This document shows positions 73 to 32,303 of a stretch of DNA of 64,000 nt, piece by piece (position 1 is the first letter of the stretch; every line of letters begins with the position of its first letter). The notes under the pieces are model-generated. The model was given only the letters and a program-made list of their open reading frames with translations. It was not told where the DNA came from and made no database searches. Where the stretch lies: positions 614,535 to 678,534 of the forward strand of contig CP129475.1 in NCBI GenBank assembly GCA_030583785.1, in the 5' to 3' direction. The position numbers and the translations under genes are program-made. Source of the DNA: Candidatus Dojkabacteria bacterium (GTDB taxonomy: Bacteria > Patescibacteriota > Dojkabacteria > B142 > OLB20).

Positions 73-876
73 CTAGATAGCAACCTCCCGCGTTGAAATA
101 TGTATCATCTTTGAGAGCTCTGCCCTATCAAATAGCCATTCGATTGGAACCCAAATCTCTGCTCTTCTGAAAGGGAAATTACTATCGATAATACGAAGCT
201 CGTAGTGACCGCTTTGATCCATTCGATACGAGTCAATAAGGACAGCGTGAAGACTTGCATCGGCATCAACTTCGTTTAATTCATACATAAACTCTCCATA
301 CTTTATATTGGCTACTACCACAGAGTTCACAGAAATTAGAGGAAGCAGAATACCAGCAAAATTCAAGACATCTTCTTCTCTTTCGGTTGCATTGAATAAG
401 TTTGCCAAAGCAACCCTCGTCTGTAGCAGACTTGTCCCCCAGTGGTTGTCGTTGATCAACGACATGGTAACTCTTTTGTAGGTTGTGGCATCAATTGTAT
501 TCGGATCTTGATTTTTGTAGAACCTAGCAATGCCGGTGGGATCAAAACTATGAATATACGAACCAAAATCGTCAATAAACTCATTTTGAGTTAGGTAATG
601 ATTGAATAATCTTCGATGAGTATCTTTGATCCTTAGGGCTTCCAACGCATTCATCATTGCGACCGGAAGACACGAGGGACGATCTTCTTGTGGTAAGTAA
701 TCTCTAGGGCCTCTCTGAAATGATGTTAGTTCAGTTTGGGTATCAAAACGAACCTTCTTACCTTCAAGGTACCAAGCTCTGTTCTCATTATTAGAGTCTA
801 CACCAGAAGCAGTTAACCCATCTGGCCTACCTACTTGTTCCCCTGTTTGTGTGTTTAAAGTCTCTAGCATATACAT
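73..876 (-). CDS. hypothetical protein; possible papain-like (C39-like) cysteine peptidase fold
   Basis: 267-aa ORF immediately downstream of fur on the same strand. Contains a Cys in a small-residue helix (PSCLPVAMMNALEAL) and later His-hydrophobic strands (DNHWGT, SGHYELRIID) reminiscent of the Cys/His peptidase arrangement. No strong named motif. Confidence 0.35.
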   Translation of the reverse strand: MYMLETLNTQTGEQVGRPDGLTASGVDSNNENRAWYLEGKKVRFDTQTELTSFQRGPRDYLPQEDRPSCLPVAMMNALEALRIKDTHRRLFNHYLTQNEFIDDFGSYIHSFDPTGIARFYKNQDPNTIDATTYKRVTMSLINDNHWGTSLLQTRVALANLFNATEREEDVLNFAGILLPLISVNSVVVANIKYGEFMYELNEVDADASLHAVLIDSYRMDQSGHYELRIIDSNFPFRRAEIWVPIEWLFDRAELSKMIHISTREVAI

Positions 877-940: not shown

Positions 941-1309
941 CTAGTTATTTGGGGATTTGTCCTTATGCTTACAACGACCAGTAAGCTTGAGTTCAAGACC
1001 TTCTATCTCAAACTCTGGTAATGATAAGGTTTTTAGAATTTTCTGTTTATTAATATTAAAGTGGTAAACCCTACCACAACTTGAGCAAACAGCATGCTGA
1101 TGATCATCTTCAGATAGCTCATAATGAATTTCATCCTTGTCAATCAATACTTCACGAAGTATACCTTCACGCACCAGAACGCTGAGATTTCTATAAACTG
1201 TCGCAAGATCAACCTCGTTGATAAGCTTGTTGTGTAAATCTTTAGCTGTAAAAAGCTCAGCTTGCGGAAGATTATTTAGTATTAGTTTTCTTTGTTTTGT
1301 GTTTCTCAT
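941..1309 (-). CDS. fur: Fur-family metal-responsive transcriptional regulator (Fur/Zur/PerR type)
   Basis: 122 aa. N-terminal winged-helix region (TKQRKLILNNL...ATVYRNLSVLVREGIL) and C-terminal metal site (HQHAVCSSCGRV, HFN) are typical of the Fur family. Confidence 0.85.
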   Translation of the reverse strand: MRNTKQRKLILNNLPQAELFTAKDLHNKLINEVDLATVYRNLSVLVREGILREVLIDKDEIHYELSEDDHQHAVCSSCGRVYHFNINKQKILKTLSLPEFEIEGLELKLTGRCKHKDKSPNN

Positions 1310-1311
1310 AT

Positions 1312-1364
1312 TTGCAAATGGTTTGCATTAGTGTTAACATGCTTATTGCAAATCAGTTGCATTA
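1312..1364. promoter_or_regulatory. two near-identical 19-bp palindromic operator-like sites in the fur/ATPase-operon divergent promoter
   Basis: ttgcaaatggtttgcatta (1312-1330) and ttgcaaatcagttgcatta (1346-1364). Each contains the inverted repeat TGCAAA...TTTGCA / TGCAA...TTGCA. They lie between the start codons of the divergent fur and P-loop ATPase genes. Confidence 0.45.
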
Positions 1365-1393
1365 ATTATACTAGATATTAGCTAAAACATACA

Positions 1394-2350
1394 ATGAAAA
1401 TTGCTTTTGTAGGTAAGGGCGGAAGCGGAAAAAGTACCCTTACTGCACTGTTTATAAAACATCTGCTAAAACATAACAAACAAATACTGGCCATTGATGC
1501 CGACATTAATATGCACCTAGCAGATCTTCTTGGAATTGAACTTGATCACTCTCTTAATCTCTCAGAATCCAAAAATGTTTTAACAATAAAAGCACATCTT
1601 GCCGGCAACAATCCCAGAATAAAGAAGCCTTCCCAAATTGTTAAAACTACACTACCTGCGAAGGGGTCAAATTTAGTATTCATTAAAAAAACCGATAGCC
1701 TACTTAAGCAGTTTAGCCAAAACTTTGGAGCCGATAATTTTTTTATGCATGTAGGAACTTATGAACAGGAAGATATCGGTGAAAGTTGTTACCATTCTAG
1801 CCTAGCTATACTTGAATCGCTACTTTCCCATACTATAACTGACGATAATCACCTGCTTGTAACAGATATGACAGCAGGAACCGACGCTTTTGCTGGATCC
1901 TTGCATGCTCAATTCGATTTAATAGTTATGGTGGTTGAACCGACTCAAGAAAGCACATTGGTTGCCAAACAATACAAAGCACTAGCCGAAGCCGCAAATG
2001 TCAAACAGTTCGTAACTTTCTTAGCAAACAAGATTGAGGATGAAGAAGATGTCTTGTACCTACAATCAGAACTCGGAACAGAAGTGATTGGCGAAGTTCC
2101 ATACAGCAAAGAAATTAAAATTCAACGCAGAAGCGGCAAGTCTGTGTTTGATCTACCTGTTTCAGTGGATCAGGCCTTTGACAGGATTACAACTCTAGCA
2201 CAAAAAAATCGAGCAGAAATAACTACGAGATTAAAGCTTCTAATTGAACTACACAAAAAGCATGTTCAAGCCGACTATATTGTTTCAAGACACGGAAACC
2301 TTCTTGACCAGATTGACGAATCTTTCAATTACGAAGGAATAAGTTACTAA
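1394..2350 (+). CDS. P-loop NTPase of the Mrp/MinD/CooC (deviant Walker A) family, possible metallochaperone-type ATPase
   Basis: N-terminal MKIAFVGKGGSGKSTLTA deviant Walker A (KGGxGKS/T). 318 aa. No CxxC cluster-binding motif was seen. Confidence 0.65.
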   Translation: MKIAFVGKGGSGKSTLTALFIKHLLKHNKQILAIDADINMHLADLLGIELDHSLNLSESKNVLTIKAHLAGNNPRIKKPSQIVKTTLPAKGSNLVFIKKTDSLLKQFSQNFGADNFFMHVGTYEQEDIGESCYHSSLAILESLLSHTITDDNHLLVTDMTAGTDAFAGSLHAQFDLIVMVVEPTQESTLVAKQYKALAEAANVKQFVTFLANKIEDEEDVLYLQSELGTEVIGEVPYSKEIKIQRRSGKSVFDLPVSVDQAFDRITTLAQKNRAEITTRLKLLIELHKKHVQADYIVSRHGNLLDQIDESFNYEGISY

Positions 2351-2355
2351 AAATA

Positions 2356-3783
2356 ATGCAGTCGCTTTTTTTAGAACCCAAATTAACTGGTCAACAAGCA
2401 CAACTGCTTGCCGATAGGGATCTTCTTTGGCAGATTTATCGTTCTGTAGGACAAGCGACAAATATCGTATTCCCGCAAATAGTTGTAGAAAACCTTAGGT
2501 TATTCGACAATGCTTTGTCAGAGCTGGGCGTCAAAAGCGAAATTTACTATGCACATAAACCCAATAAATCTATCTCTATTGCCAGAGAACTAGCCTTATT
2601 GAAGTCGGCAAAAATAGACATTGCATCGTATGGCGAACTAAAGTCTGCTCTCAACGCAGGATTTAACGGAAGCAGAATAGAAGCAACAGGACCAAAAGAC
2701 AGCTTTTTTCTTGCACAGCTTCTTCTACATAAGGCAACTATTAATATTGACAGCTTATCTGAGCTACAAAAGATAATTAACCTTAAGAAAAAAATCGGCT
2801 TCGAGGATCAAACACAAATATTTGTGAGACTTGCCAAACCATCAGGTCTAAATACTGAGAAGGATTCTCGCTTTGGTATACCCGACAACGAAATAGACTC
2901 CCTGTTTTCAGAACTTGATAAATACAGGGCAGAGATACGATTCAAGGGTTTCTCCTATCATCAAAATAGCTATACCCCCAGTTCAAGAATCCTTGCTCTC
3001 GAGAGAACAATTTTATTGACTCTCGAGGCACTCAAAAAAGGTTTGACGCCAGAATCAATCAATATCGGAGGTGGTTTTAAGATCAATTACATAGCGAACC
3101 GAAATCAATGGCAGGATTATGTTTCTGGCGTAATTGCAGGCATTCTGGGAACAGGAAAACACCTGGGGTGGAACAAAACAGGTCTTGGCTACTGGAACGA
3201 AAACGGAAAAATACGCGGAAGCCAAAACTTTATGAATTTCTATCAAAATGAAGACCAGTACGAGCAATTAAGTAGCCTTCTCTCACAGAAGTCAACAAAA
3301 CTTGGAGGAACATTTGCCTCCACCCTCTCTGAAATGATGCTATCGCTTTGCATTGAACCTGGCCGTTCTATGTTGGACCAGGCCGGCATGACAATTGCAG
3401 AAATCATCGACATAAAGAAATCCGCAAACGGCGAAAACATTTTGGTGATGAATATAAACCGTTCTCAACTCGACTCGTTTGAACAGGAATACATGCTAGA
3501 TCCAATATTGGTAAAACCTTTAGAAAGCAAAGAAATTGAAACAAGCGATGCTTTCCTTGCAGGCAACCTCTGCCTTGGTAGTGATTTCATAAGCAAACGC
3601 AGAGTCTTCTTTAAAAGCAGACCAGAAGTTGGTGATCTACTAATATTTACAAATACCGCAAGCTATTTAATGGACTTTGCCGAAAGCAATACGCTTCAAC
3701 AACCAATAGCTCCTAAAATAGCCGTATACAAAAAAGAAGATAAACTCTTCTTCACTAGGGACGAAAATTACTTCTCAATATAA
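2356..3783 (+). CDS. PLP-dependent decarboxylase, fold-type III (Orn/DAP/Arg decarboxylase family)
   Basis: YAHKPNKS resembles the YAxKAN PLP-lysine motif. GGGFKINY and C-terminal CLGSDF (cf. CESGD) fit the DAP/ornithine decarboxylase family. 475 aa. Separated by 5 nt from the preceding ORF. Confidence 0.55.
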   Translation: MQSLFLEPKLTGQQAQLLADRDLLWQIYRSVGQATNIVFPQIVVENLRLFDNALSELGVKSEIYYAHKPNKSISIARELALLKSAKIDIASYGELKSALNAGFNGSRIEATGPKDSFFLAQLLLHKATINIDSLSELQKIINLKKKIGFEDQTQIFVRLAKPSGLNTEKDSRFGIPDNEIDSLFSELDKYRAEIRFKGFSYHQNSYTPSSRILALERTILLTLEALKKGLTPESINIGGGFKINYIANRNQWQDYVSGVIAGILGTGKHLGWNKTGLGYWNENGKIRGSQNFMNFYQNEDQYEQLSSLLSQKSTKLGGTFASTLSEMMLSLCIEPGRSMLDQAGMTIAEIIDIKKSANGENILVMNINRSQLDSFEQEYMLDPILVKPLESKEIETSDAFLAGNLCLGSDFISKRRVFFKSRPEVGDLLIFTNTASYLMDFAESNTLQQPIAPKIAVYKKEDKLFFTRDENYFSI

Positions 3784-3787
3784 AAAA

Positions 3788-5095
3788 ATGCTGTATAAGA
3801 ATATTACTGAACTAATCGGCAATACTCCACTTCTGAAGATTGATAGGACGGTACATGGCATTCCCAACCTGAACCTTTATGCAAAACTAGAGTATATGAA
3901 TCCGTTTGGATCAGTAAAAGATAGAGCTGTCTGGGGTATTTTAAGACCTGACTTGAAAAAGATTCAAAAAGATGGCAGCAAGGTGTTAGAGATGTCGAGT
4001 GGCAATACAGCCAAGGCTATTCAATCTATCTGCAGTCAGTATGGCATACCTTTCAAAACTATTACAAATAGAATCAAGGTACAAGAGGTAAAGGATACAC
4101 TTCTACTTCAAGGTGTTGAAATAGAAGAATTGCCGGGTAGCAGCGACTGCCATGACCCAAACGATCCGAACGATCCGCTTGTCTATATTCACAAAGAACT
4201 AACTGATCGATTGCAAAAAAAATACTTCACATCTCAGTACAATAACGAAAGAAATCTGCAGGAGCATTATGAAACGACCGGAGCCGAAATCCTTGCCGAT
4301 TTAACCAAAGTAGATTATTACTTTGCAGGACTAGGAACAACAGGGTCCTCTAGAGGACCTGCTTCTAGAATACGAGAGAGAGATACGCATTTAAAGATGA
4401 TTGGTGTTGTGGCTAACAAAGATGATTATATTCCGGGGATAAGAACAAAAGACGAGATGTATGAAGTCGGCCTTTTACAACCCGACTTTTATGATGAGAT
4501 TGTTGACATCTCCGCAAAAGATGCCACAGAAGGCATGATTGAACTAATCAGAAAATGCGGGGTTCATAGTGGACCAACAGGAGGTGCTGTTTACCAGAAA
4601 ATTAAGCAATACTTTCGGGATAATCCAATTCAAGAAGAATTAGAGATAAATGCCGTCTTTATTGTTTGCGACAGAATGGAGAATTATATAAGTTATGTAA
4701 AAGAAAGACAGCCCGAAATCTTTGGGGAAGATTCAAGAATAAGCTGGAAAGATAGATCAGATGATACTAAGCAAGCGACCGAACTGGAGCCAACACAAGC
4801 TTCGGAATTGATTCACGATCCGAGTTGGCTTGTTGTCGACACAAGAAGCCCCCTAGCTTTTAAGAGTGCCCACATTGCTAATTCATTAAACATTGCCTAT
4901 GACCACTTAGATAAGATGCTCAATGATGGCAATCCGTTTTGTCTTAGCAACAAACTGCTGTTTGTGTGCGCGCTTGGTGAGAAATCTAGAAAAATTGCTT
5001 CGTACTGCGAACAGGCCGGCAGTAAAGCATATTCTCTTGCAGGTGGAATAACTTCTTGGAGGGATAAAAATCTACCATTAGAAAGAGATTTATGA
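3788..5095 (+). CDS. cysteine synthase/cystathionine-beta-synthase-like PLP enzyme (fold-type II) fused to a C-terminal rhodanese domain
   Basis: N-terminus ELIGNTPLLKI, KLEYMNPFGSVKDRA (PLP Lys) and SSGNTAKAI are hallmarks of the CysK/CysM/CBS family. C-terminal ~110 aa (LVVDTRSP...FVCALGEKSRKIASY...AGGITSW) look like a rhodanese fold with a Cys loop. The stop overlaps the next start (ATGA). Confidence 0.7.
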   Translation: MLYKNITELIGNTPLLKIDRTVHGIPNLNLYAKLEYMNPFGSVKDRAVWGILRPDLKKIQKDGSKVLEMSSGNTAKAIQSICSQYGIPFKTITNRIKVQEVKDTLLLQGVEIEELPGSSDCHDPNDPNDPLVYIHKELTDRLQKKYFTSQYNNERNLQEHYETTGAEILADLTKVDYYFAGLGTTGSSRGPASRIRERDTHLKMIGVVANKDDYIPGIRTKDEMYEVGLLQPDFYDEIVDISAKDATEGMIELIRKCGVHSGPTGGAVYQKIKQYFRDNPIQEELEINAVFIVCDRMENYISYVKERQPEIFGEDSRISWKDRSDDTKQATELEPTQASELIHDPSWLVVDTRSPLAFKSAHIANSLNIAYDHLDKMLNDGNPFCLSNKLLFVCALGEKSRKIASYCEQAGSKAYSLAGGITSWRDKNLPLERDL

Positions 5096-6270
5096 ATAAA
5101 CTAGAGAATCTTAAATCTAAGTTTCCATTTTTTGTCAACAATCCAGGGATAACCTACCTTGATAGTGCTGCTACGACTCACAAACCAAATTCGGTTATCA
5201 AGATAGTAAATGACTATTACTGCAAGAATAACGCTAATGCCGGTAGAGGCATATACTCTCAAAGCTTGAAGTTAGAAAATGATGTAGAAGATGTGCGCGA
5301 AAAGGTTGCAAACTTTATCAACGCAAAAATTGATAACATAATCTTCACCTCAGGTGCGACATCTGGAATAGAACAGATCTCAAATCTATTACTCCCTTTA
5401 TTCAATGACGGAGACGAAATCATCTTTTCACCTTTCGACCATAAATCCTTGATACAACCTTGGCATCGGACTCAACAAGTTGCAAGGAACTTTGGACAAG
5501 TAATCAAACTAGTCCCCTATTCTTACAAAGAATCAGGTGAAGCAAATTTACCAGAAATCAGAAATTTTGTTAGCAATAAAACAAGAATAATTGCCACCAC
5601 TCAGCTTCATAATATTTATGGCGAAATAACCGATGTTGCACAGCTTAAAGGTCACACACAAGATGCATTAGTATGTCTAGATGCAACGCAGAGCGTATCG
5701 CACGGAATTCTAGATGTGGAAGATCTTGGTGCAGATATAACAGTATTTTCTGGTCACAAAATGTTTGCCAGTCAAGGAGTAGGTGTTATTGCTTTGAGCG
5801 ATAGAGCAAAAGCTGTCCTTAGTCGGAGTGCTCGTATCCTAAGTTCAGAAACATTGCGATCAACTCTTGAATCGGGAACACAAAACTGGGCCGGGATCTT
5901 AAGCCTCAAACCTGCAATTGAGTTTATCGAAGAATTAGGCAGTAACAATATTCATAAACACCTTGCGTACCTCACCCAGCTTATTGTGCAAGGATTAAGA
6001 AATTTCAAGAAAGTTGAATTTACAAAGGGTCCGGCAAACTGGAGATGCGCCGACGGATACGGAATAGTGTCATTCAATGTTGCCGGTTTAGAGCCAAGCG
6101 AGCTAGGTTTTATTCTCAATGAGCAGAATATATGTGTGCGTAGCGGTGATCACTGTAACTTTAACAAGAAAGAGCAAAGCGTTAGAGTATCACTGCAAGT
6201 CTACAACGATGAAGAAGACATACAACGGTTCCTGAATGTGCTTACAAAACTATTACATCATCGGAATTAG
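5092..6270 (+). CDS. class-V aminotransferase, cysteine desulfurase (SufS/CsdA-like)
   Basis: YLDSAATT start, FSGHKMFASQGVGV (SGHK PLP-lysine motif) and RSGDHCN (cf. SufS RxGHHCA catalytic Cys loop). 392 aa. Confidence 0.75.
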   Translation: MNKLENLKSKFPFFVNNPGITYLDSAATTHKPNSVIKIVNDYYCKNNANAGRGIYSQSLKLENDVEDVREKVANFINAKIDNIIFTSGATSGIEQISNLLLPLFNDGDEIIFSPFDHKSLIQPWHRTQQVARNFGQVIKLVPYSYKESGEANLPEIRNFVSNKTRIIATTQLHNIYGEITDVAQLKGHTQDALVCLDATQSVSHGILDVEDLGADITVFSGHKMFASQGVGVIALSDRAKAVLSRSARILSSETLRSTLESGTQNWAGILSLKPAIEFIEELGSNNIHKHLAYLTQLIVQGLRNFKKVEFTKGPANWRCADGYGIVSFNVAGLEPSELGFILNEQNICVRSGDHCNFNKKEQSVRVSLQVYNDEEDIQRFLNVLTKLLHHRN

Positions 6271-6380: not shown

Positions 6381-6980
6381 TTAACTGTTCCGCTTATTTT
6401 CTTCTGTTAACTCAAATGGTAATTCAGCAAAAGACAATAACGCACATTGATTGTTGATCCAGTCCTCTGTTATTTTGAAAATTTTTGCATAAACGAAATC
6501 TGCACTACCAAACATTGCTTCTTTCCAGTTAAAACCTAATAACGAAGCATATTCTTTGACTTTTTCTTCTGTATCGGCCTCTATTTCAATCCATGGCTCA
6601 AGACCAGGCCAAGTATCGATATCAAATTCAATATCCAAATCTTTAATAACATATCGAATCCTTTTAGTCTCTTGATAAGCTTTCTCAACCAATCCAACAG
6701 AACGAAGATATTCTCTTGCCTTATCAAAATTATCGACTTCAACTTCGACTTCTTCTACTCCATCTAGTGATTGAGATACAACTCGCTTATAAGTCATTGT
6801 TATTTTATCTACCTCATCTCGTACTCTCGCCCATGCTCCTGATTTTGCAATTGGCAGATCATAAGTACATCTACGCAATAGTCTTTCATCAAAAACTTTA
6901 ACTGCACCAATGTTTTCGAGTTTCTTGATGATGTCCTCTTTATTGATGTTGATGAATTTTGCTTCGATCTCTTTACCCAT
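6381..6980 (-). CDS. CYTH-domain protein (triphosphate tunnel metalloenzyme / class IV adenylate cyclase-like)
   Basis: Starts MGKEIEAKF (the EIE.KF signature of CYTH). Acidic beta-strand repeats follow. 199 aa. Confidence 0.6.
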   Translation of the reverse strand: MGKEIEAKFININKEDIIKKLENIGAVKVFDERLLRRCTYDLPIAKSGAWARVRDEVDKITMTYKRVVSQSLDGVEEVEVEVDNFDKAREYLRSVGLVEKAYQETKRIRYVIKDLDIEFDIDTWPGLEPWIEIEADTEEKVKEYASLLGFNWKEAMFGSADFVYAKIFKITEDWINNQCALLSFAELPFELTEENKRNS

Positions 6981-7185
6981 AGAGATTAAATTGTTTATTG
7001 GATTCTAGCACATAGGTAATTAGGAGTCAGGCTAGGAATTCAAGTCTATAAAATTAGACCTACCACAAATCTGATCCTCTCAATCAAAATAAAACTGGCT
7101 TAGATATCTAATCCTGCTTTGTCAGTGTGAATCCGATACTATGAAAGTCATTAAGGTGATTTGCGAGCATAAGAATACCCAACTG

Positions 7186-7203
7186 GTGGAGATGGCGGGA
7201 ATA
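7186..7203 (-). repeat. direct duplicate of the tmRNA 3'-terminal 17 nt (with encoded CCA), att-like scar
   Basis: ATTCCCGCCATCTCCAC occurs at 7335-7351 (gene end) and again at 7187-7203, where it is followed by CA, giving ...CTCCACCA. The second copy lacks a T-arm. Confidence 0.55.
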
Positions 7204-7333
7204 GCCACAGGCCACAACTCGGGGTAGAACTCGAACTTCGCTATGCTCGTTCTCGCTAACTCCCGGTTTGTCGAACCCATGGGTTCTCTCTCATACAATC
7301 TCCACGCTGCCCACCACTTCGTGATGGTCACCG

Positions 7334-7785
7334 TGGAGATGGCGGGAATCGAACCCGCGTCCAGAAAATCGTGCATCTATGTTCTACAAGCTTAGCAGAT
7401 TTATTTCAGACGATTGGTAATAGAAACCTGCAAAAACCACCAATCGACTGCATGCATCTTCTTCGCTGTGCAAAGCATACAAGTCTGCACAGTCTGCATC
7501 CTGACTGTGTTTCTCCTTTAGTATCCCATCAGGAAAAGATAACTAAAGAAGGCTTCTAACCGCGAGCTAGGCTCGAGCGGTCTTAGGCAGCTAAGTTGAG
7601 CTGGAAGCCGAAGAAAGAGTTAACTTTCTCAGCAACTGCATCAAAAAAGCTTTGTGCTTTGTTTTCGACGATTATTTTTGTCTTCCCAGTGAGTTCTGGG
7701 AGTGTCGGTTTAGTTACAAAGATACCGAACAAAACTTTGGCTTGCCATAAACACACTATATTCTCTGTCAAAACCGGTCATCCCC
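7334..7785 (-). ncRNA. ssrA: tmRNA (ssrA)
   Basis: Minus-strand 5' end GGGGATGACCGGTTTTGACAGAG, with a G3.U wobble in the acceptor stem. 3' tRNA-like end GGACGCGGGTTCGATTCCCGCCATCTCCA (T-arm plus acceptor, CCA not encoded). Internal tag reading frame ...AEKVNSFFGFQLNLAA-TAA ends in the canonical LAA-stop. Confidence 0.8.
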
Positions 7786-7987: not shown

Positions 7988-8977
7988 ATGGGAATAGATA
8001 CTTTATTACAACTTGGTTACCCAAGAAACCTTCTAGGCCGAAGAGTAGATCAAGAGTTTGTCGATCAAATTACGAGATGCGCCAACCCACTCGCAGATAA
8101 GCTACACGAAAAAAATCACTCCACAGACTATCCAGAATGGTTTGGTGGTCTTTGCGATGCAGCACTTTCTTGTTATCTCGCAAAAGATGGTAGTACTCTT
8201 AAACCGACCATAAGCTACGAAACCTCCCAGATACCTGCTGCCTATGTTTTACTAGGTTCATTAGGTAGATTCGGAGATTGGCCAAAACCAAGATTGAAAG
8301 GATATCCAGAATCTGAAACCAGCACAATCGCAGTCGCCACAAAAAAACAGGATATAATTGATGCCTTGATAGGAGCTACCAGACATAGCATTTTTAGCCA
8401 AAGAATTCTTAGAAATCTGCTTCTATACAAAGGTGATTATGACAGAGAAGAAGATATTCAGTCTGCAATTAGTAGGTTTAGAGAAGCTAGGTCAACAAAT
8501 ATCTCAGAAACAGACCAGCATTTGATTACCCCTGCATACATTGCAGGTTGGATAGATGCAGGTAAGATAGGAATTAATATCTGCCCAGAAAGAAACCCTA
8601 GCAACACAGAACAGTTAACTTTTCGCCCGATGATAACATTTGGCTACCGTAATGGGCTTGGAGCTCAGATATCAAGACTTTATGGGGGCAGTCTACGACC
8701 CGATGGAACAGCAATTATCTCTAAAGCAGAATTTGTACTTTATTTTTGCGATGATGTTGCACCACACCTAGTTACACGGCCCGAAGTCGCAGTATTACAT
8801 GCACTCTCTACAGAAAAATTGACTAGAATCGCAAGAGATGAAGGTCAAGTTCACTTGGCTGCAGACGAAACAGTAGGATACGATTGTTACACAGCTTTTT
8901 GTGAACTTACAGGAGCAAAAGCCGCTTCACTCGAAGAGCTAAAACAAAATCTGATTATAAGCGCAGAAGTTTCATAG
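7988..8977 (+). CDS. hypothetical protein
   Basis: 329-aa ORF with coding-like composition and no recognisable motif. Its 3' end overlaps trpS convergently by 23 nt. Confidence 0.45.
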   Translation: MGIDTLLQLGYPRNLLGRRVDQEFVDQITRCANPLADKLHEKNHSTDYPEWFGGLCDAALSCYLAKDGSTLKPTISYETSQIPAAYVLLGSLGRFGDWPKPRLKGYPESETSTIAVATKKQDIIDALIGATRHSIFSQRILRNLLLYKGDYDREEDIQSAISRFREARSTNISETDQHLITPAYIAGWIDAGKIGINICPERNPSNTEQLTFRPMITFGYRNGLGAQISRLYGGSLRPDGTAIISKAEFVLYFCDDVAPHLVTRPEVAVLHALSTEKLTRIARDEGQVHLAADETVGYDCYTAFCELTGAKAASLEELKQNLIISAEVS

Positions 8978-9944
8978 CATCTTTTACCCTATCAATTACA
9001 CCCTCTGCTGTCGCATAAGCCTTCTTTGTTCCTTCGTGCAATATTTCTGTCAGAACTGTCTGATCACCATACTTTTGGCGGCGAGAACTAATTGGCTCCA
9101 TTAACTCTTCTAGGCTTGCCAGTAGCTTTTGCTTGACCTCAACATCTCCAACCCGCCCTTTTATATATCGTTCTTTCAAATCTTCTACCTCAGCTTTATT
9201 TTTATTGAAAATATCGTGGTAAACAAAAACAGGATTCCCTTCAACTTTACCGGGATCAGTTGCCCGCACTCTATTTGGGTCTGTATACATGGACATGACC
9301 TTTTGTTTTAGAGATTCAGAAGATTCGTTGAGATAAATTGCATTGTTAAGGGACTTGCTCATCTTGGCATTGTTGTCTAATCCGACAAGCCTCGACACAG
9401 ATCCCACTTTCGCTTCTGGCTCGACTAGTGTCTGCCCGTATATTCCATTAAACTTACGCACCAGCTGTCTTGCCACTTCAATGTGTGGAAGCTGATCTTC
9501 ACCAACGGGTACCAAATTTGCATCATAAATTGCAATATCTGCGGCCTGACTAACCGGATACATAAAAAATCCAAGAGGTACGCTGTCTTCGAATCCCTTC
9601 TGCTTCATCTCTGTTTTAACTGTAGGATTGTGGCCGAGCTTATTTACGGATATTAAGTTGGCAAGAAAAACAGTGAGCTCTGCAGTTTGAGGAATAGCCG
9701 ACTGCAGAATAAATGTTACTTTTTCTGGATCAAGACCAACGGCAATATTATCTTGCAATACCTGCAAGACATTGTCTCTTACTTTTTCGGGTTTTTCGAA
9801 ATTATCAGTAAGTGCTTGAACATCGGCAATCAAAATGTATGTATCATAATCGTTTTGCAGTTCTACTCTGTTTTGCAACGACCCGACAAAATGCCCTAAA
9901 TGCAAAGGGCCTGTAGGTCTGTCTCCTGTTAGTATTCTTTTCAT
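8955..9944 (-). CDS. trpS: tryptophanyl-tRNA synthetase
   Basis: TGPLHLGH (HIGH motif), KMSKS present, 329 aa. Typical class-I TrpRS. Confidence 0.9.
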   Translation of the reverse strand: MKRILTGDRPTGPLHLGHFVGSLQNRVELQNDYDTYILIADVQALTDNFEKPEKVRDNVLQVLQDNIAVGLDPEKVTFILQSAIPQTAELTVFLANLISVNKLGHNPTVKTEMKQKGFEDSVPLGFFMYPVSQAADIAIYDANLVPVGEDQLPHIEVARQLVRKFNGIYGQTLVEPEAKVGSVSRLVGLDNNAKMSKSLNNAIYLNESSESLKQKVMSMYTDPNRVRATDPGKVEGNPVFVYHDIFNKNKAEVEDLKERYIKGRVGDVEVKQKLLASLEELMEPISSRRQKYGDQTVLTEILHEGTKKAYATAEGVIDRVKDAMKLLRL

Positions 9945-10050: not shown

Positions 10051-12018
10051 ATGTATCAGTGGGAATATCTTCTTAACAAGAATCCAAAAAAGGATATCAA
10101 TGAATTTTCTGCAAAAAGCGGAACGGCTGTACTTTCTAGGTATCAAAACAAAAAAGCAAATACTGTTCAATTTCGTGTGTATGTAAACAGAAAGTATGCT
10201 CGAGTAAAACTGATTGGTCCTTTTAACGATTGGGGCAGAAAACAAGATCAAGGAGAATGGCTACTCAAGCCAGATAGCAAATCCGAATTCTATACAGTTT
10301 CTATTGTCGGCGGAAAAATTAAACATAAAACCCCGTATCTCTATTTTGTAAACGGTAAGATATTAAGAGATCCGGCCTCTGCCTTTTTTGACAAAGACGG
10401 AAACAGTGTTTTTTGGGACTTCGATGATCCATCTGCCTACAACTACAAGTTTGAGAAACCAGACCTTAGAGGCAAATCCGTAAAAATACTGCAGACCGAT
10501 CTTCCGGGATTGGTAACGCATGTTGAAAATGCAAAAGGCAACAGCGGTTGGCAAATAGAGCCAGACGGCACATTCGATTTTATTCGTAGCAGTGGGGTTA
10601 TAAAAAAAATTAAAGATCTTGGATTTAATGCTATCCAGTTTTTACCCGTTGCCAGATCAATAGATGGAGGCAAATGGAGTCTGCGATACCTTGTCCCCTA
10701 TCTATATTCAATAAACAACTACTGGGGAACCCCCGATGATTTTGCAGCCATGGTTGATAAATTCCACGAGCATGGAATTGCGATCATAGTTGACCTTGTT
10801 GTCTCGCATGCTCCTTATAAAGACTATCGACTCTTTGGCAAACCTGCTGACGATGTCGGAATCCATCTCTGGCAAGACGACAAGGCAAATCAAACATATT
10901 TGGACCAAGAAACCAACTGGGGCACAAAAAGATATCGGATTGCAGATGCTAACATCCGTAGCTTTGTCAACGAATCGGCTTTATTTTGGCTGAAGCACTA
11001 CCGAGTCTCTGGCTTTCGCATCGACAATGTCGACGGAATTCTGAGATATGGCGATAACGGAGATGGACGCGAAAGACCAAATGGTAGAGAGTTTTTACGC
11101 GAGTTAACTTCTGAGGCATACAAATACGATCCTTCCGTATTCTTTCATTTTGAAGCTCATTATTTCTACAAGAATAACGCTAAATGGCTGGTGCAAAAAC
11201 TAGAAGAAGATAAAAAGGCTTTGGGTGCAACCGCATATACATCCTCAAGACTAACCTACCATTTTCATGCGGAGTATATGCCTTTTAGCGCAGATAAGTT
11301 GTCTGTCTGGAAGTATAAGCATATCAACGACGAGCAGGAATGGGGAGAATCTGCATCTACGATAGCCGATTTTCATAACCACGATGCAGCAGCAGGTCTT
11401 ATGTCTATGAGGGCGACTGGTTCGTATGCATACGATGCCCTTACAGTCAAAAACCCTGATCTTCATTACCATGCAGTAGGTAAAATTAAGGTAATGGAAG
11501 CACTAATCAGCTTTCTTGCCGAGGGTCGAACTCTGGATCTGCTTCAGTCTTTACTTCTACAAACAGGAAGCTTTGAACATGATTCAACAATCCATTGGCA
11601 ACTGGTCAATTCCGAACTTGTGCGTGCCATGCTCAACTATAAAAAAGACATAAACAAACTTCTTGATCAAGAAGAATTCTGGCCAATTAATGTGTCTCAA
11701 AGGAAAATCATTAATCTAGATGATATTAACAAATGCCTGACATTTATCAGGTCGACAAAAAAAGACGCTGGCAAACACGGATACTTGGTTCATATAAATA
11801 TTTCCGGAGCAATGCTTAAACAAATTGTCATTCCTGCTCCGATAGTTGGAGATTACAAAGTTATAATGAATTCAGATTTATTTACTTATGCCGGAAGCGG
11901 AAGGGTTCAATTTGCCGAAGTGCTAAAAAGTGCCCCAACAAATCAGTTTGAATTATTCCCACACGGTTTGCATTTAACACAAATTGCTCCGTACGGAATA
12001 GTAATCTTTAAGTACTAG
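10051..12018 (+). CDS. GH13 alpha-amylase-family enzyme with N-terminal CBM48-like domain (1,4-alpha-glucan branching enzyme-like)
   Basis: N-terminal VNRKYARVKLIGPFNDWG (CBM48/E-set). GH13 region I IVDLVVSHA and region II GFRIDNVDGI (catalytic Asp). 655 aa. Confidence 0.65.
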   Translation: MYQWEYLLNKNPKKDINEFSAKSGTAVLSRYQNKKANTVQFRVYVNRKYARVKLIGPFNDWGRKQDQGEWLLKPDSKSEFYTVSIVGGKIKHKTPYLYFVNGKILRDPASAFFDKDGNSVFWDFDDPSAYNYKFEKPDLRGKSVKILQTDLPGLVTHVENAKGNSGWQIEPDGTFDFIRSSGVIKKIKDLGFNAIQFLPVARSIDGGKWSLRYLVPYLYSINNYWGTPDDFAAMVDKFHEHGIAIIVDLVVSHAPYKDYRLFGKPADDVGIHLWQDDKANQTYLDQETNWGTKRYRIADANIRSFVNESALFWLKHYRVSGFRIDNVDGILRYGDNGDGRERPNGREFLRELTSEAYKYDPSVFFHFEAHYFYKNNAKWLVQKLEEDKKALGATAYTSSRLTYHFHAEYMPFSADKLSVWKYKHINDEQEWGESASTIADFHNHDAAAGLMSMRATGSYAYDALTVKNPDLHYHAVGKIKVMEALISFLAEGRTLDLLQSLLLQTGSFEHDSTIHWQLVNSELVRAMLNYKKDINKLLDQEEFWPINVSQRKIINLDDINKCLTFIRSTKKDAGKHGYLVHINISGAMLKQIVIPAPIVGDYKVIMNSDLFTYAGSGRVQFAEVLKSAPTNQFELFPHGLHLTQIAPYGIVIFKY

Positions 12019-14468: not shown

Positions 14469-15089
14469 TTAGCTAAGATTTTCTAATGTGTATGCCCAGA
14501 CTAGCCCTATTACAGATTTGGCGCCCGCTGTCTTAAGAACCTGTGCACACTCTGCAAGAGTTGAGCCGGTTGTACAAACATCGTCGACCAAGACAATTCG
14601 TTTGTCTTTAATCGTGTCCGAGCTTGTTAGAGAGAAGGCATTACTTAGATTCCTTTTTCTATCTGCTTTTGATAGTTCGGCCTGATTTCTTGTGTCTTTA
14701 GTTTTAATTAGCACATTGTTTAACTTTTTATTATTTATATGCTTACAAAGCAATTCGGTATGCTGAAAACCCCTCCATTTGGTGCGCTTATTAGAAGCAG
14801 GTACCGGTATAAGATAGTCGTAATCAATAGCTTGTAACCGTGTATTCATCATAAAGGCAATGTCTGCTGCGTAATCAAAATAAAAATTAAACTTATAATC
14901 GTGCATGATTTTTTGTGCAAGCTTGTCGTAAGGAACGCAGGCTAAAACAATATCGAAACCATCGATGATTGGAACAACAGGTTGCTGCCAGATACTTCTA
15001 CATTCAGGACAAATCCAATAATTATTCTTGCCGCATACACGGCAAGTTCGAGGAAATAGTGTGCTAAAAAGTATATCGGAAACAAACAT
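14469..15089 (-). CDS. comFC: ComF-family competence protein / phosphoribosyltransferase
   Basis: N-terminal zinc ribbon (CRVCG...CPEC) and C-terminal PRTase motif IVLVDDVCTTGSTL. Confidence 0.75.
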   Translation of the reverse strand: MFVSDILFSTLFPRTCRVCGKNNYWICPECRSIWQQPVVPIIDGFDIVLACVPYDKLAQKIMHDYKFNFYFDYAADIAFMMNTRLQAIDYDYLIPVPASNKRTKWRGFQHTELLCKHINNKKLNNVLIKTKDTRNQAELSKADRKRNLSNAFSLTSSDTIKDKRIVLVDDVCTTGSTLAECAQVLKTAGAKSVIGLVWAYTLENLS

Positions 15090-15574
15090 AGATGATTATT
15101 ATTGTCTACATAATTAATACACTTTTAGTCTTAACAATTTCTTAACTTGTCCACAATTAGGGATGATTGATTGAATATCTTGTTACAAAACAAAAGAAAA
15201 CAAGACAGAAACAGCTTTTTTCACCACTACCTTTCCTCTACCAATCGATCTCGTTGCCAGACAATAATTTTCGGTTGATTCTTGCACTTGAGCCGACCGA
15301 ACAGATACCGATACCTGCAAGTTCGTACATTAATTCTCTATAAGCATGAAATAGAATTGTCGAGTGGACCCTGTATTAAAAACCCAAAGAAAATACTAAT
15401 CGTAACCACAATTACCTACCCTCCCTCAGCTTACAACAAACTTCTTAACTTCTCATGAATAATTGATTTTTACATTAAATAATTAGAAAGCTAAGTTTGT
15501 TCAACTATTATATTCAATAATTGCTTATCGATCATTTCTTTGTTAGAATTAATCTCAAATCAAATAACAATGCG

Positions 15575-15770
15575 TTGAACCGACCTAGTCATCGGGGAGC
15601 AAAGGAAAGAACATCAGTTTTTCTGACTAGTAGACTCCTTCGGGTAGGCCCGAAATAGCCGCAAGAGATGCCCGAAAAGGCATGGATCAGGGTGGAACCT
15701 CCTTATATATCGAAGGACCCTATCCGACAATCGCAGCTGTAATGCGGTTGGCGGATAGGGTTTTTTGTAT
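15575..15770 (+). promoter_or_regulatory. T-box-like leader riboswitch upstream of valS
   Basis: Conserved T-box-like sequence ATCAGGGTGGAACCTCC (cf. AGGGUGGNACCGCG) at ~15692-15708, directly 5' of an intrinsic terminator. Possible Stem-I elements: GTTGA k-turn-like motif, a GTCA loop (Val codon GUC plus purine), and AGAGA. Confidence 0.5.
15721..15766 (+). terminator. rho-independent terminator / T-box terminator hairpin
   Basis: ccctatccg...cggataggg perfect 9-bp stem followed by tttttt. Confidence 0.65.
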
Positions 15771-15785
15771 CTTATAAACATATAT

Positions 15786-18665
15786 ATGCTAACCAAGGGA
15801 CCATACGAAGCAACAATAACAGAGGAATCAATATTAAATTATTGGCTCGAAAATAAATTTTTTAAACCGGAATATCATCCAGAAAAGGGGCTACAGACCG
15901 AGGCAGAAATGCGTGCCGACCAGAGAGATCCTTTCACTATCGTTAATCCCCCACCGAACGCATATATGCGACCACATATCGGGAATGTTTCCGGATATGC
16001 ATACCAAGATGTTTTACTTCGTTACAACAGATTACTTGGTAAGAAAGTACTGGGACAACCCGGAAAAGACCACGCAGGCATACAAGGCGAGGTGGTAGTA
16101 GAAAAGATATTTCTAGAAAATAAAAAAAAGAGCAAACAAGATCTAGGACGCGAAAAATTCTACAAAGCATCGTATGCGCATTTTCAAAAACTTATGCCCA
16201 TGGTTATGGCCGACGAAAAAAGGATTGGTTTGTCAAGCGACTACGAGCGCAACCTATTTACACTTGACCCAAGAGTCGTAAATACGATTTTGAACACCTT
16301 TGTTTCTCTATATTCAGACGGAATGGTATATAAGGGCGTTCGCATCGTAAATTGGGATCCTGTTGCCAAGACCACCCTTGCAGATATCGATACCGAAAGA
16401 GTCGAAAGGGAAACGGAACTTGTTTATATTAAATACCCGCTAAAGCAAGAAATTGATGGAATAAATCATATTACAGTTGCCACAACTCGAGCAGAGACAA
16501 TGCTGGGAGATACCGCCGTTATTGTTAACCCTAAAGACGAGAGGTACAAAAAACTTATTGGAGCGATAGTGGTGCTTCCACTTGCTAATAGAGAAATCCC
16601 AATCATTACCTCTGAAAGGGTTGAGAGTGAATTTGGAACTGGAGCAGTCAAACTTACTCCGGCACATTCATACGACGATTATGTCATGATGAACGAATGG
16701 AACTCTGTTGCCAAGGAAAACGAAAAGATCGGATATATCAATGTAATTAATAAGCAGGCCAAGATGTACGGCCCAATCCCCGAAAGATACATTGGACTTA
16801 GCACCGAAGAAGCTAGAAGCAAAGTACTTGTTGACCTCGAAGAACAGGGACTCATCGAAAAGAAAGAGGCTCACACACAAAGTGTAATGGTCGGAGAAAG
16901 ATCGAAAGCTGTCATCGAACAGATAATGTCTTCACAGTGGTTCATTGATGTGGAAAGGCTTAAACAGCCGGCAATCGAGGCTGTAAAATCAGGAGAAATC
17001 CAGATCCATCCAAAATACATGACAAAAAAATACTTAACCTGGATGGAAAACCTTCATGACTGGCCAGTCTCAAGGTCTCTATGGTGGGGATACCGAATTC
17101 CTGTTTGGTACAAAGGTGAGCTTAGTGAAGATATTGACGAAAAAGGTCAGGTGATAGAGACAGTTGGAGGAGAGAAAGTCGAAAATATTAACGATGCAGT
17201 CAATAAAGGACTTGCCAAGATTCAACTTGATCCACCGGGAACAACATTTGCAGTTATTCGACATGGAGCGACAGAGCATAATCAGGAGCACAGATTAACA
17301 GGCAGAATCGACACCCCCTTAAGTGAATCAGGAATTAAAGAATGTGAGATTTATGCAAATAATCTGCAAGAATCCTTTGATTTGATAATCTCTTCGCCAC
17401 AAAAAAGGGCTTTTCAAACCGCAGAAATCATTGCTGCTAAACAAAACAGCAAACCAAACATAATTACCGACGAAAGACTTAGAGAAAGAGACTTTGGTAT
17501 CGCCGAGGGCAAAAACTGGGAAGAACTAATTACAGAAAATCCTGAACTGGCAAAAAGCAACTCTCCTCTCTTTCAACCCGAACTTCCTGAGGCAGAAACA
17601 ATTACAGAAGTTGAAAGCCGTGTTGAAGATTGGATCAAAGAAACCGCCGAAAAATATACAGGAAAGAAAATTCTTGTCGTAACACATGCGGGCGTGTACC
17701 GAGTAATTAGAAGACAACTTGGAGGAATGAATGCAGACGAATCCAGAACCGATATTGCCAACCTGCAAATGGAGAGGTATCACATTAAAGAGGAGGGCTG
17801 GATTCAAGATGAAGATGTGTTTGATACCTGGTTTAGTTCTGGACAATGGCCGTATGCCACGCTAAGAGCAAACAACATCAATGACTGCTTCTTTCCATCT
17901 GATGTTATGGAGACAGGACACGATATCCTTGAACTATGGGTAAGTCGAATGATCATGCTCTCGTTATACACAGAAAACAAGATTCCTTTCAAACATGTTT
18001 ATTTACATGGTCTGGTTAAAGCTCCCGACGGGCAAAAGATGAGTAAATCTAAAGGGAATGTCATTGCTCCGGAAGAAATCATTACCAAATACGGAGCTGA
18101 TTCACTAAGACTACTTTATGTAGTTGGGAATCGAGCCGGTTCAAGTTATCCTGTGAGCTACGAAAAACTTGAAGGATACAAAAGATTTCTTAACAAAATC
18201 TGGAATGCAGCGAAATTCGTTCTTTCAAATCTTGAAGATTTAAACATTGATCATCTTGCAAATACCGATATAAAGAATCTTAACCTTGCCGAGACCGATA
18301 GAACTATGCTCGATCATATGAACCTTTTAATCGCAGACACCACGCGTAGATTGGATAACTTTAATCTAGGCATTGCTGCGCAAGAGTTATACGATTCATT
18401 CTGGCATACTTTTGCGGATATCTATTTAGAAGAAGTAAAAATGCGCTTGTATACAAAAGATAAGGACGGCAACCCTATAAATACTTCTGAGCAAGAAAAA
18501 CAAAGCAGATTTGCAGCACAGTGGACTCTGTACAACTGCTTTAGAGAGTATCTAATTCTATTGCACCCATTTATTCCGTTTATAAGCGAACGGATTTGGC
18601 AAGATCTACCGAAAACAGACAAAGAAAGTAAAACAATTATGTATTCTCGCTGGCCCCAGCGTTAG
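15786..18665 (+). CDS. valS: valyl-tRNA synthetase with an inserted histidine-phosphatase-superfamily domain
   Basis: ValRS blocks: PPPNAYMRPHIGN (HIGH-region variant), GKDHAGIQ, VNWDPVAKTTLADIDTE, WPVSRSLWWGYRIPVWY, DTWFSSGQWP, KMSKSKGN. An insert at ~17110-17810 carries the RHG phosphatase signature (IRHGATEHN ... LVVTHAGVYR). The ATG at 15786 was chosen because the longer ORF start overlaps the leader terminator. Confidence 0.9.
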   Translation: MLTKGPYEATITEESILNYWLENKFFKPEYHPEKGLQTEAEMRADQRDPFTIVNPPPNAYMRPHIGNVSGYAYQDVLLRYNRLLGKKVLGQPGKDHAGIQGEVVVEKIFLENKKKSKQDLGREKFYKASYAHFQKLMPMVMADEKRIGLSSDYERNLFTLDPRVVNTILNTFVSLYSDGMVYKGVRIVNWDPVAKTTLADIDTERVERETELVYIKYPLKQEIDGINHITVATTRAETMLGDTAVIVNPKDERYKKLIGAIVVLPLANREIPIITSERVESEFGTGAVKLTPAHSYDDYVMMNEWNSVAKENEKIGYINVINKQAKMYGPIPERYIGLSTEEARSKVLVDLEEQGLIEKKEAHTQSVMVGERSKAVIEQIMSSQWFIDVERLKQPAIEAVKSGEIQIHPKYMTKKYLTWMENLHDWPVSRSLWWGYRIPVWYKGELSEDIDEKGQVIETVGGEKVENINDAVNKGLAKIQLDPPGTTFAVIRHGATEHNQEHRLTGRIDTPLSESGIKECEIYANNLQESFDLIISSPQKRAFQTAEIIAAKQNSKPNIITDERLRERDFGIAEGKNWEELITENPELAKSNSPLFQPELPEAETITEVESRVEDWIKETAEKYTGKKILVVTHAGVYRVIRRQLGGMNADESRTDIANLQMERYHIKEEGWIQDEDVFDTWFSSGQWPYATLRANNINDCFFPSDVMETGHDILELWVSRMIMLSLYTENKIPFKHVYLHGLVKAPDGQKMSKSKGNVIAPEEIITKYGADSLRLLYVVGNRAGSSYPVSYEKLEGYKRFLNKIWNAAKFVLSNLEDLNIDHLANTDIKNLNLAETDRTMLDHMNLLIADTTRRLDNFNLGIAAQELYDSFWHTFADIYLEEVKMRLYTKDKDGNPINTSEQEKQSRFAAQWTLYNCFREYLILLHPFIPFISERIWQDLPKTDKESKTIMYSRWPQR

Positions 18666-32273: not shown

Positions 32274-32303
32274 AAGTGTACACCACTATCAACTAGTTTA
32301 TTT

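Follow-up and report, generated by a model that had tools for sequence, protein, structure and literature searches.

A widely conserved module of PLP-dependent enzymes beside a Fur-family regulator in a Dojkabacteria genome: a candidate metallophore pathway

Gene organization of the locus

The window analysed here is a stretch of 64,000 nucleotides from a Candidatus Dojkabacteria bacterium (assembly GCA_030583785.1, contig CP129475.1, positions 614,535 to 678,534 of the forward strand), and window coordinates count from its first letter. Between positions 941 and 6270 it carries a gene for a Fur-family regulator and, diverging from it, an operon of four genes encoding a CooC-like P-loop ATPase (the NTPase), a fold-type-III decarboxylase (DC) dependent on pyridoxal phosphate (PLP), a protein in which a PALP domain is joined to a rhodanese domain (the fusion) and a SufS-like enzyme of the cysteine desulfurase family. 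A first-pass annotation of this DNA had described a Fur-family gene divergent from four tightly coupled plus-strand genes, and its open reading frame (ORF) coordinates and spacings were reproduced exactly: the plus-strand ORFs are separated by 5 nt and 4 nt and then overlap by 4 nt, and the Fur and NTPase genes are divided by 84 bp of intergenic DNA. The domain content that it had read for all five ORFs was borne out by Pfam, and the motifs YAHKPN and CLGSDF (DC), SVKDR (fusion), and SGHK and RSGDHC (SufS-like enzyme) were all found in the translations. The features of the locus are as follows:

941–1309, minus strand: Fur-family regulator, 122 amino acids (aa); PF01475 FUR, 1.1e-19
1312–1328, no strand assigned: candidate operator site 1, TTGCAA-ATGGT-TTGCAT (6-5-6), abutting the Fur start codon
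1346–1362, no strand assigned: candidate operator site 2, TTGCAA-ATCAG-TTGCAT, overlapping a plausible −35 element of the plus-strand operon
1394–2350, plus strand: NTPase, a CooC-like deviant-Walker-A ATPase, 318 aa; CbiA 5e-12 and MinD-class matches
2356–3783, plus strand: fold-type-III PLP decarboxylase (DC), 475 aa; Orn_Arg_deC_N 1e-16 and Orn_DAP_Arg_deC
3788–5095, plus strand: PALP–rhodanese fusion, 435 aa; PALP 5e-43 and Rhodanese 9e-12
about 3803–4672, plus strand: PALP domain of the fusion (residues 6–295; Pfam)
about 4790–5065, plus strand: rhodanese domain of the fusion (residues 335–426; Pfam)
5092–6270, plus strand: SufS-like (type II) cysteine-desulfurase-family PLP enzyme, 392 aa; Aminotran_5 2e-84

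None of the operon proteins reached the cutoff of a curated NCBIfam equivalog, and hence none is an ordinary cysK, cysM, sbnA, lysA or sufS product. Base composition shows no anomaly, and an Rfam scan of the window at gathering thresholds returned a tmRNA and a tRNA only, with no riboswitch or other RNA element at the operon.

The PALP–rhodanese fusion

The top NCBIfam family of the fusion is SbnA (TIGR03945; 144 bits against a cutoff of 350), followed by CysM (141 bits, cutoff 413), cysKM (139, cutoff 344) and cysK (106, cutoff 351), none of which was reached, and its best PDB match by sequence is CysM. A structural model predicted with AlphaFold2 (AF2) had a confidence score (pLDDT) of 85. 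When this model was searched against the PDB with Foldseek, ranks 1–4 were occupied by the synthetase of aspergillomarasmine A (AMA; entries 8h4h and 8h4q), aligned over both domains (461–469 columns), and ranks 5–8 by SbnA; CBS and CysM followed. AMA synthase is the only solved structure with the two-domain PALP and rhodanese-like architecture of the fusion, and the analogy to SbnA and SbnH drawn in the first-pass annotation proved apt, SbnA being the second-best structural match. Sequence and model together suggest that the fusion would be an AMA-synthase/SbnA-like β-substituting enzyme.

The active-site residues are strongly conserved among the 85 members of the fusion family. The first-pass annotation had made its interpretation depend on the PLP lysine and the rhodanese cysteine, and both (K44 and C394) are invariant in 85/85 members, as are the Asn loop S70-S71-G72-N73, Q150, C121 and the triplet C294-D295-R296. 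In the rhodanese loop, C-x-x-G-x-x-S/T, G397 is likewise present in all members and S400 in 83. This part of the protein can be aligned on GlpE and other true sulfurtransferases, and its Cys falls on the catalytic one; PDB queries with the C-terminal domain did not retrieve the rhodanese-like domain of AMA synthase, which is too divergent. A further family feature is an insert, S-D-C-H-D-P-N-D-P-N-D-P in the window protein (residues 119–130, window 4142–4177) and S-D/E-C-x-D-P...D-P across the family, in which Cys121, Asp123 and Pro124 are invariant (85/85) and Asp129 is found in 83/85. The insert was modelled as a low-confidence loop (pLDDT 57–69) and could serve as a metal-binding or persulfide-relay loop. 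All of the best 120 database matches of the fusion carry both the PALP and the rhodanese domain.

Conservation of the module across genomes

A scan based on the fusion, with one genome per species, yielded 80 loci, in which the window proteins were compared by tblastn and ORFs were clustered, antisense shadow-ORF clusters of high-GC genomes being discarded. The loci belong to Nocardia, Streptomyces, Actinoplanes, Obscuribacterales, Micavibrio, Bdellovibrionota, Bryobacterales, Bacillales, Clostridia, Patescibacteria/Uhrbacteria and one gammaproteobacterial metagenome-assembled genome. In 79/80 loci the gene immediately 5′ of the fusion is DC. A SufS-like gene neighbours the fusion, at a distance of up to ~3 kb, in about 72 of the 80: directly downstream in Streptomyces, Actinoplanes, Obscuribacterales and others, and ~3 kb upstream in Nocardia. 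It is missing from the otherwise complete modules L002, L003, L086 and L089 (loci are cited by number). The NTPase occurs in 15 loci, nearly all outside the actinomycetes, and the full set of Fur, NTPase, DC, fusion and Aminotran_5 genes recurs in L082/83, L084, L019 and L087. DC and the fusion are the invariant core of the module, with the SufS-like enzyme and the NTPase as frequent accessories.

Searches seeded with other members led back to the same module, from the NTPase in a proteobacterium (L087) and a Nanohaloarchaeon (L086), and from DC in Ktedonobacteria (L088, L090) and a Gram-negative bacterium (L089). The proposal in the first-pass annotation that the four genes form one functional module, rather than separate cysK, lysA and sufS genes, is therefore upheld by co-conservation across loci in both search directions. 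That housekeeping cysK, lysA and sufS genes came to lie beside a Fur gene by chance would agree with the nearest named families of each protein, which are housekeeping ones; against it stand the unreached family cutoffs, a fixed gene order co-conserved across phyla and domains, and family-specific invariants, namely the SDC-DP...DP insert of the fusion and the CxH motif of the NTPase described below. Chance juxtaposition is refuted by this co-conservation, with DC and the fusion as invariant core, and we assign it a negligible probability.

Overall, the module is present in hundreds of genomes, spanning Streptomyces, Nocardia, predatory bacteria, Obscuribacterales, Chloroflexota, Patescibacteria (a group with heavy metagenomic sampling) and Nanohaloarchaea, and it is kept in very small genomes with little secondary metabolism. 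No description of it was found in the full-text literature, in line with the earlier remark that the combination was not a described system; the module is widely conserved and apparently undescribed. Every enzyme type that it contains is already known, as are Zur-regulated metallophore operons. What is new is the combination of a Y4yA-type decarboxylase with a prokaryotic AMA-synthase-like PALP–rhodanese enzyme, commonly accompanied by a SufS-like enzyme and a CxH paralogue of CooC.

Several lineages show their own variants. In the archaeal locus L086 (6429–12299) the order is CobW/COG0523, a 163-aa protein, NTPase, DC, a 201-aa protein and fusion, with no SufS-like gene, and in L087 a 140-aa ORF follows the fusion; none of these three small proteins belongs to a recognisable family. 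L088 and L090 encode a stand-alone PALP enzyme of 318 aa (8467–9423 in each) between DC and the fusion, and Ktedonobacteria-type loci hold up to three more Aminotran_5 genes near the module; these extra PALP and Aminotran_5 genes suggest a more elaborate version of the pathway. A flavin amine oxidase and a GNAT protein accompany the module in Obscuribacterales, and Streptomyces loci contain a conserved S-adenosylmethionine (SAM) methyltransferase nearest to carboxyl O-methyltransferases.

Decarboxylase, SufS-like enzyme and CooC-like ATPase

DC scored 101 bits against the lysA model TIGR01048 (cutoff 298, not reached), and its best PDB matches are diaminopimelate (DAP) decarboxylases (1e-13). 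Its homologues form a narrow family of 142 matches, named 'Y4yA family PLP-dependent enzyme' by NCBI and UniRef, and by sequence DC belongs to this uncharacterised 'Y4yA-like' subfamily. Across 69 family members the fold-III catalytic set is complete, with K68, H202, G238–240, E334-P335-G336, C406 and D410 conserved at 95% or more.

The SufS-like enzyme reached 281 bits against the TIGR01979 sufS model, short of the cutoff of 475, and matched Bacillus subtilis SufS at 1e-50, with both the PLP Lys (SGHK) and the catalytic Cys aligned (RSGDHC versus RAGHHC). Both residues are kept in all true SufS-like family members; the Streptomyces sequences read ...D(G/S)LCQ..., with the catalytic Cys present. 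No SufE, SufU or CsdE acceptor and no suf genes adjoin the SufS-like gene in the window or in the loci.

The NTPase was modelled with AF2 from database homologues (pLDDT 88), and the best fold match of the model is CooC1 (3kje), the nickel-insertion ATPase of carbon monoxide dehydrogenase (CODH); a family profile likewise matched CooC1 at 2e-22 and MinD at 5e-6. CooC1 and the NTPase share the fold, the deviant Walker A motif GKGGxGK(S/T) and the position of the metal motif. In the NTPase, Cys132-Tyr-His134 (nt 1787–1795) aligns exactly on Cys-Tyr-Cys of CooC1, and among its homologues (n=20) GKGGSGKST and C132, Y133 and H134 are invariant; the NTPase additionally bears a C-terminal helical region of ~60 aa. 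By sequence it is a CooC paralogue in which the CxC metal motif has changed to CxH. In CooC, CxC is a metal site at the dimer interface, and similar motifs are found in the chaperones UreG (CPH) and HypB (CH). Relatives of the NTPase carry the JGI name 'CO dehydrogenase maturation factor', yet no genes for CODH or acetyl-CoA synthase (CODH/ACS) were found in any locus examined, unlike the setting of CooC1; the context of CooC1 is nickel and CO, whereas that of the NTPase is of zinc type. CooC has been placed in the MinD class, and COG0523 chaperones have been tied to Zur (PMC2770081). From sequence and model, the NTPase is a probable metallochaperone, a role on which the first-pass interpretation had not drawn.

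These assignments bear on whether the module might be a maturation system for metal centres or sulfur trafficking, for example a zinc-independent stand-in for the Zn-dependent SufU, or a device for inserting metal into a client. Operons of the suf type are typically under Fur-family control, CooC1 is the best match of the NTPase with the metal-motif position conserved, type II desulfurases require a dedicated acceptor and no other is encoded nearby, and COG0523 chaperones adjoin the module in L086 and L088. However, the invariant core of the module is DC plus the fusion, the NTPase is found in 15 loci only and the SufS-like enzyme is dispensable; for this reason Fe–S assembly is rejected. The conserved DC and the complete β-replacement active sites would have no role in cluster assembly, and no candidate client metalloenzyme is conserved alongside the module. 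We consider a maturation system quite unlikely.

Regulation and metal-limitation context

The regulator possesses the FUR winged-helix domain and the H-x-H...C-x-x-C region, its HQHAVCSSCG aligning on HYHAICENCG of PerR. PerR is also its best NCBIfam family (55 bits against a cutoff of 200), and its nearest solved structures are BsPerR (3e-9), Fur, MtZur (7e-7), ScZur (4e-5) and Nur (3e-4). The pattern TGCAA-N3-5-TTGCA has two matches in the 64 kb window, both inside the 84-bp spacer, and these candidate operators agree at 11 of 12 positions with the Streptomyces coelicolor Nur box, tTGCaa-N5-ttGCAA, which has the same 6-5-6 form (PMC2691836). The −35 element overlapped by site 2 was assigned by eye, and a consensus promoter and terminator scan of the window gave nothing above chance. 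On this sequence evidence, metal-responsive repression of the window operon is likely. Nickel is not favoured as the signal: the operators agree with the Nur box, but the regulator itself resembles Nur only weakly, and the cross-lineage context is of zinc type throughout.

That context is provided by the neighbours of the module in other genomes. In a patescibacterial locus (L004) the operon continues into Fur-ZnuA-ZnuC-ZnuB-YibE/F; in the archaeal L086 the gene immediately before the module encodes the CobW/COG0523 GTPase, with one of the NikR family close by; in L088 the module sits between ZnuABC and CobW; and in L089 it diverges from genes for DUF2946, a TonB-dependent receptor and Fur, with a ZIP transporter adjoining. 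Fur-family genes occur in the flanking DNA of 14 loci, among them Micavibrio, where the gene comes straight after the fusion. In 26 Nocardia-type loci a protein of ~425 aa (for instance, L007 5249–6523) is encoded between the SufS-like gene and DC; its C-terminal 60 aa form a CopZ/CopP-like MxCxxC domain of the HMA type, and its N-terminal ~340 aa match no family. This HMA protein fills the accessory slot held elsewhere by the NTPase.

Zur-type boxes near the module were found in several loci. Across the 1.53 Mb of loci, the search motif for the Escherichia coli Zur box, TRWNAYRWTATAWYRTNWCA (PMC6103462), is matched perfectly (20/20) once only, in the 129-bp divergent promoter of L089. In L087, the operon and the Fur gene each have a site with one mismatch just upstream; shuffled sequences gave at most 0.07 such sites per locus by chance. 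A perfect TGAAAATGATTTTCA lies upstream of the Fur gene in L019, and a Zur-type box was found also in L082. For the actinobacterial box, tGaNNatSatNNtCa or taaTGaNAANNNTTNtCANta (PMC5472717), a TGGAAACCGTTT(T/C)CA form recurs at one constant place in about 28 Streptomyces loci, with the SufS-like gene on one side and the SAM methyltransferase gene on the other, and an actinobacterial-type box in L067 stands directly upstream of both the NTPase homologue and DC. In Actinoplanes (L076), a Zur-type box (10637–10700) stands ahead of an ORF whose product starts MSNVCDVTGAK, about 1.3 kb away from the fusion gene. This ORF resembles a zinc-independent paralogue of ribosomal protein L28, and it provided a built-in positive control for the box search. 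Metal-responsive control, as the first-pass annotation had envisaged from the Fur gene, is thereby strongly supported and, through the neighbours and Zur boxes of relatives, sharpened towards zinc; the context of the module is consistently one of metal limitation, mainly of zinc.

A Zur regulon may also house enzymes that spare zinc, in the manner of FolE2, and zinc-independent paralogues are common in such regulons (PMC2770081, PMC6103462). The module could accordingly be a bypass of primary metabolism, supplying lysine, DAP, lanthionine, a polyamine or a cysteine-type metabolite by an alternative route. The LysA-like nature of DC would suit this, as would the persistence of the module in very small genomes with little secondary metabolism. 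On the other side, no known zinc-dependent enzyme has the module's set of reactions, and the TonB-dependent receptor of L089, the methyltransferase, oxidase and GNAT tailoring genes and the kinship with AMA synthase all point to a secreted specialised product, which makes a bypass improbable.

A redox function is the other reading on which the context bears. Here the self-contained persulfide relay of the first-pass annotation, running from the SufS-like enzyme through the rhodanese Cys to an aminoacrylate on the fused PALP domain and followed by decarboxylation, would yield a sulfur-containing amine or low-molecular-weight thiol, with a redox or persulfide role under a PerR-type regulator in place of metal capture. 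C394, C121 and C294 are invariant in all 85 fusion members, the rhodanese domain resembles true sulfurtransferases, the SufS-like enzyme, encoded close by in most loci, retains both Lys and Cys, and the window regulator is nearest to PerR. In addition, oxidative-stress genes (desulfoferrodoxin, MarR, glutathione-peroxidase-like and thioredoxin-reductase-like) flank L082, and KatG flanks L087. Nevertheless, what recurs beside the module is zinc-uptake genes and Zur boxes rather than redox genes, four loci with complete modules (L002, L003, L086 and L089) have no SufS-like gene, the characterised enzymes of the same architecture perform sulfur-free C–N chemistry, and a net Cys-to-Cys sulfur cycle would be futile. 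We therefore regard this role as unlikely.

Relationship to known systems

The closest structural relative of the fusion, AMA synthase of Aspergillus oryzae (8H4H, apo; 8H4Q, with O-phosphoserine), has the same PALP plus rhodanese-like two-domain architecture and joins O-phosphoserine to aspartate and then to toxin A. Fda4 of Fusarium has been described as a PLP enzyme with a rhodanese-like domain that uses O-phosphoserine and alanine, after which a flavin oxidase releases L-2,3-diaminopropionate (L-Dap) (PMC12751119; bioRxiv 10.1101/2025.10.30.685158). The flavin oxidase and N-acetyltransferase of the Fda4 cluster (Fda3/Fda5) are paralleled by the oxidase and GNAT of the Obscuribacterales loci. 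AMA is a natural Zn2+ metallophore (PMC8829947, PMC8319579). AMA synthase is nonetheless fungal, works without a partner decarboxylase, CooC-like ATPase or desulfurase, and is not known to draw on sulfur; an invariant insert of its own, S-D/E-C-x-D-P...D-P, and three invariant cysteines set the prokaryotic fusion family apart.

The SbnA/SbnB/SbnH set of staphyloferrin B biosynthesis in Staphylococcus aureus also couples a CysK-like enzyme acting on O-phosphoserine with a fold-III decarboxylase in a Fur-regulated metallophore pathway. SbnA, however, has no rhodanese domain, the DC of the module is of the Y4yA-like subfamily, no SbnB-type dehydrogenase was found in the window or the conserved loci, and the NIS synthetase (non-ribosomal-peptide-synthetase-independent siderophore synthetase) of an Sbn-type pathway has no counterpart in the module.

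A comparable pairing is that of aesA–D, which Spohn et al. (2016) reportedly showed to combine an SbnA-like PLP enzyme with a DAP-decarboxylase-like enzyme into an ethylenediamine-type aminopolycarboxylate, ethylenediaminedisuccinate (EDDS). The EDDS set also encodes an SbnB-like enzyme and lacks any rhodanese domain, desulfurase or CooC-like ATPase. The [S,S]-EDDS zincophore pathway of Amycolatopsis japonicum is Zur-repressed (PMC9252823). Opine metallophores (staphylopine cnt, pseudopaline) are likewise made by small Zur-regulated operons, with a TonB-dependent receptor in Gram-negatives (PMC10563805); such operons share that receptor with L089, although their enzymology, a nicotianamine-synthase-like enzyme and an opine dehydrogenase, is wholly different. 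The bacterial zincophores known to date are few: EDDS, those of the staphylopine and pseudopaline types, and a small number of siderophores that bind zinc as well (PMC10563805).

Among sulfur-transfer systems, CysM–CysO of Mycobacterium tuberculosis and SufS–SufE/SufU embody a protein-bound sulfur donor, an idea that fits the rhodanese Cys of the fusion and its SufS-like partner. In contrast to these relays, the module has no CysO, MoeZ or Mec and no SufE or SufU, its sulfur would come from cysteine, and its DC and zinc context have no counterpart in them.

Proposed function

Considering these data together, we propose, with a probability of about 0.5, that the module is a Zur/Fur-repressed system of metal limitation, most likely of zinc, that makes an amino-acid-derived metallophore. 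When metal is scarce, the Fur-family repressor would leave the two 6-5-6 candidate operators and the four genes would be co-expressed. By homology, the PALP domain may then form a PLP-bound aminoacrylate from O-phospho- or O-acetyl-serine and capture a nucleophile, giving a 2-amino-2-carboxyethyl conjugate; in AMA synthase, Fda4 and SbnA this nucleophile is an amino-acid amine. The LysA-like DC would strip a carboxylate from an intermediate of the diamino-dicarboxylate type so that a unit of the aminoethyl or ethylenediamine type remains, in the way suggested for EDDS. In the least certain step, the SufS-like enzyme, where present, might load a persulfide on the rhodanese Cys394, from which it could pass to Cys121 or Cys294, so that sulfur enters the product or acts as the nucleophile. 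The CooC-derived Cys-x-His ATPase would handle the metal, loading or unloading the chelator or passing metal to clients. Tailoring and transport would be lineage-specific, through the SAM methyltransferase, the flavin amine oxidase and GNAT protein, the CopZ-like HMA protein, the TonB-dependent receptor and ZnuABC.

The first-pass annotation had gone further and proposed that cysteine sulfur, mobilised by the desulfurase, feeds the β-replacement as a rhodanese persulfide. In that form the claim is not supported and is one possibility among others: AMA synthase and Fda4 form C–N bonds and need no sulfur, and four otherwise complete modules do without the SufS-like gene. A persulfide relay is plausible, given that the rhodanese Cys never varies and most loci supply a true partner of the desulfurase type; it may nevertheless be secondary, and it is not needed in every lineage and has no precedent in the characterised enzymes of the same architecture. 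We put incorporation of sulfur into the product at somewhat less than even odds.

A number of observations weigh against a zinc-regulated metallophore pathway. CysM scores the fusion as well as SbnA does by sequence, so that the nucleophile of the fusion may be N or S, and identity between the fusion and AMA synthase is only 21–22%. The candidate operators of the window are of the 6-5-6, Nur-like form, not of the n-1-n Zur/Fur/Per type, and the regulator is by sequence nearest to PerR/Fur and weakly similar to Nur, so that they point to no single metal in the window organism. For the majority of Streptomyces loci it is the methyltransferase gene, not DC, that has the Zur box in front of it, and no Zur box was found in the Nocardia loci. 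Known pathways to metallophores can do without an ATPase of the CooC type, none of the window ORFs tested next to the operon encodes an exporter, receptor or metal transporter, and oxidative-stress genes flank L082.

A bolder form of the metallophore proposal is doubtful as it stands. It would make the module a zincophore system spanning Bacteria and Archaea, in which a persulfide-fed AMA-synthase-like enzyme and the Y4yA-type DC produce a sulfur-containing aminoethyl or aminocarboxylate chelator with the CxH ATPase, re-tooled from the CxC (nickel) form, as metal partner. It would also be a main zinc route of ultra-small symbionts of the Candidate Phyla Radiation (CPR) and DPANN, a role suggested by the retention of the module in those genomes.

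Should a chelator be made, the module would represent a new and widespread route of metal acquisition, and both the Y4yA subfamily of decarboxylases and a CooC paralogue with an altered metal motif would gain a function. The module would also bring to light prokaryotic relatives of AMA synthase, of clinical interest since AMA strips zinc from metallo-β-lactamases, and offer a way to study metal scarcity in minimal-genome symbionts. The proposal is directly testable because cultivable, genetically tractable carriers exist.

Neighbouring genes and other features of the window

The operon region is flanked by ORFs of 267 aa (73–876, minus strand) and 329 aa (7988–8977, plus strand), neither of which matches Pfam or NCBIfam. 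A Logan metagenome contig bears the same DNA, including the 267-aa ORF beside the Fur gene. Directly after the operon lies a CYTH/class-IV adenylate-cyclase-like gene (6381–6980, minus strand); the unrelated locus L084 also has a CYTH-type gene (14548–15156), some 4 kb away from its module, which may be coincidence or a weak link. The tmRNA gene (7331–7785, minus strand; 121 bits with Rfam) encodes the tag VENKAQSFFDAVAEKVNSFFGFQLNLAA according to ARAGORN, and an 84-aa ORF that overlaps it (7122–7376) is probably not a gene.

Further along the window, a carotenoid-like block on the plus strand (29054–33122) comprises a fusion of DUF1295 with an α/β-hydrolase, a flavin amine-oxidase/phytoene-desaturase-like protein and a squalene/phytoene synthase. 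The gene content of the window otherwise includes many aminoacyl-tRNA synthetases and a short initiation factor IF-2, which suggests a Patescibacteria-type organism with a small genome. One of the synthetases, a class-I enzyme of the Ile/Val/Leu type with 966 aa (15765–18665, plus strand), is unusual in carrying a complete His_Phos_1 domain (residues 497–679, 1.8e-43) between its catalytic core and its anticodon-binding domain.

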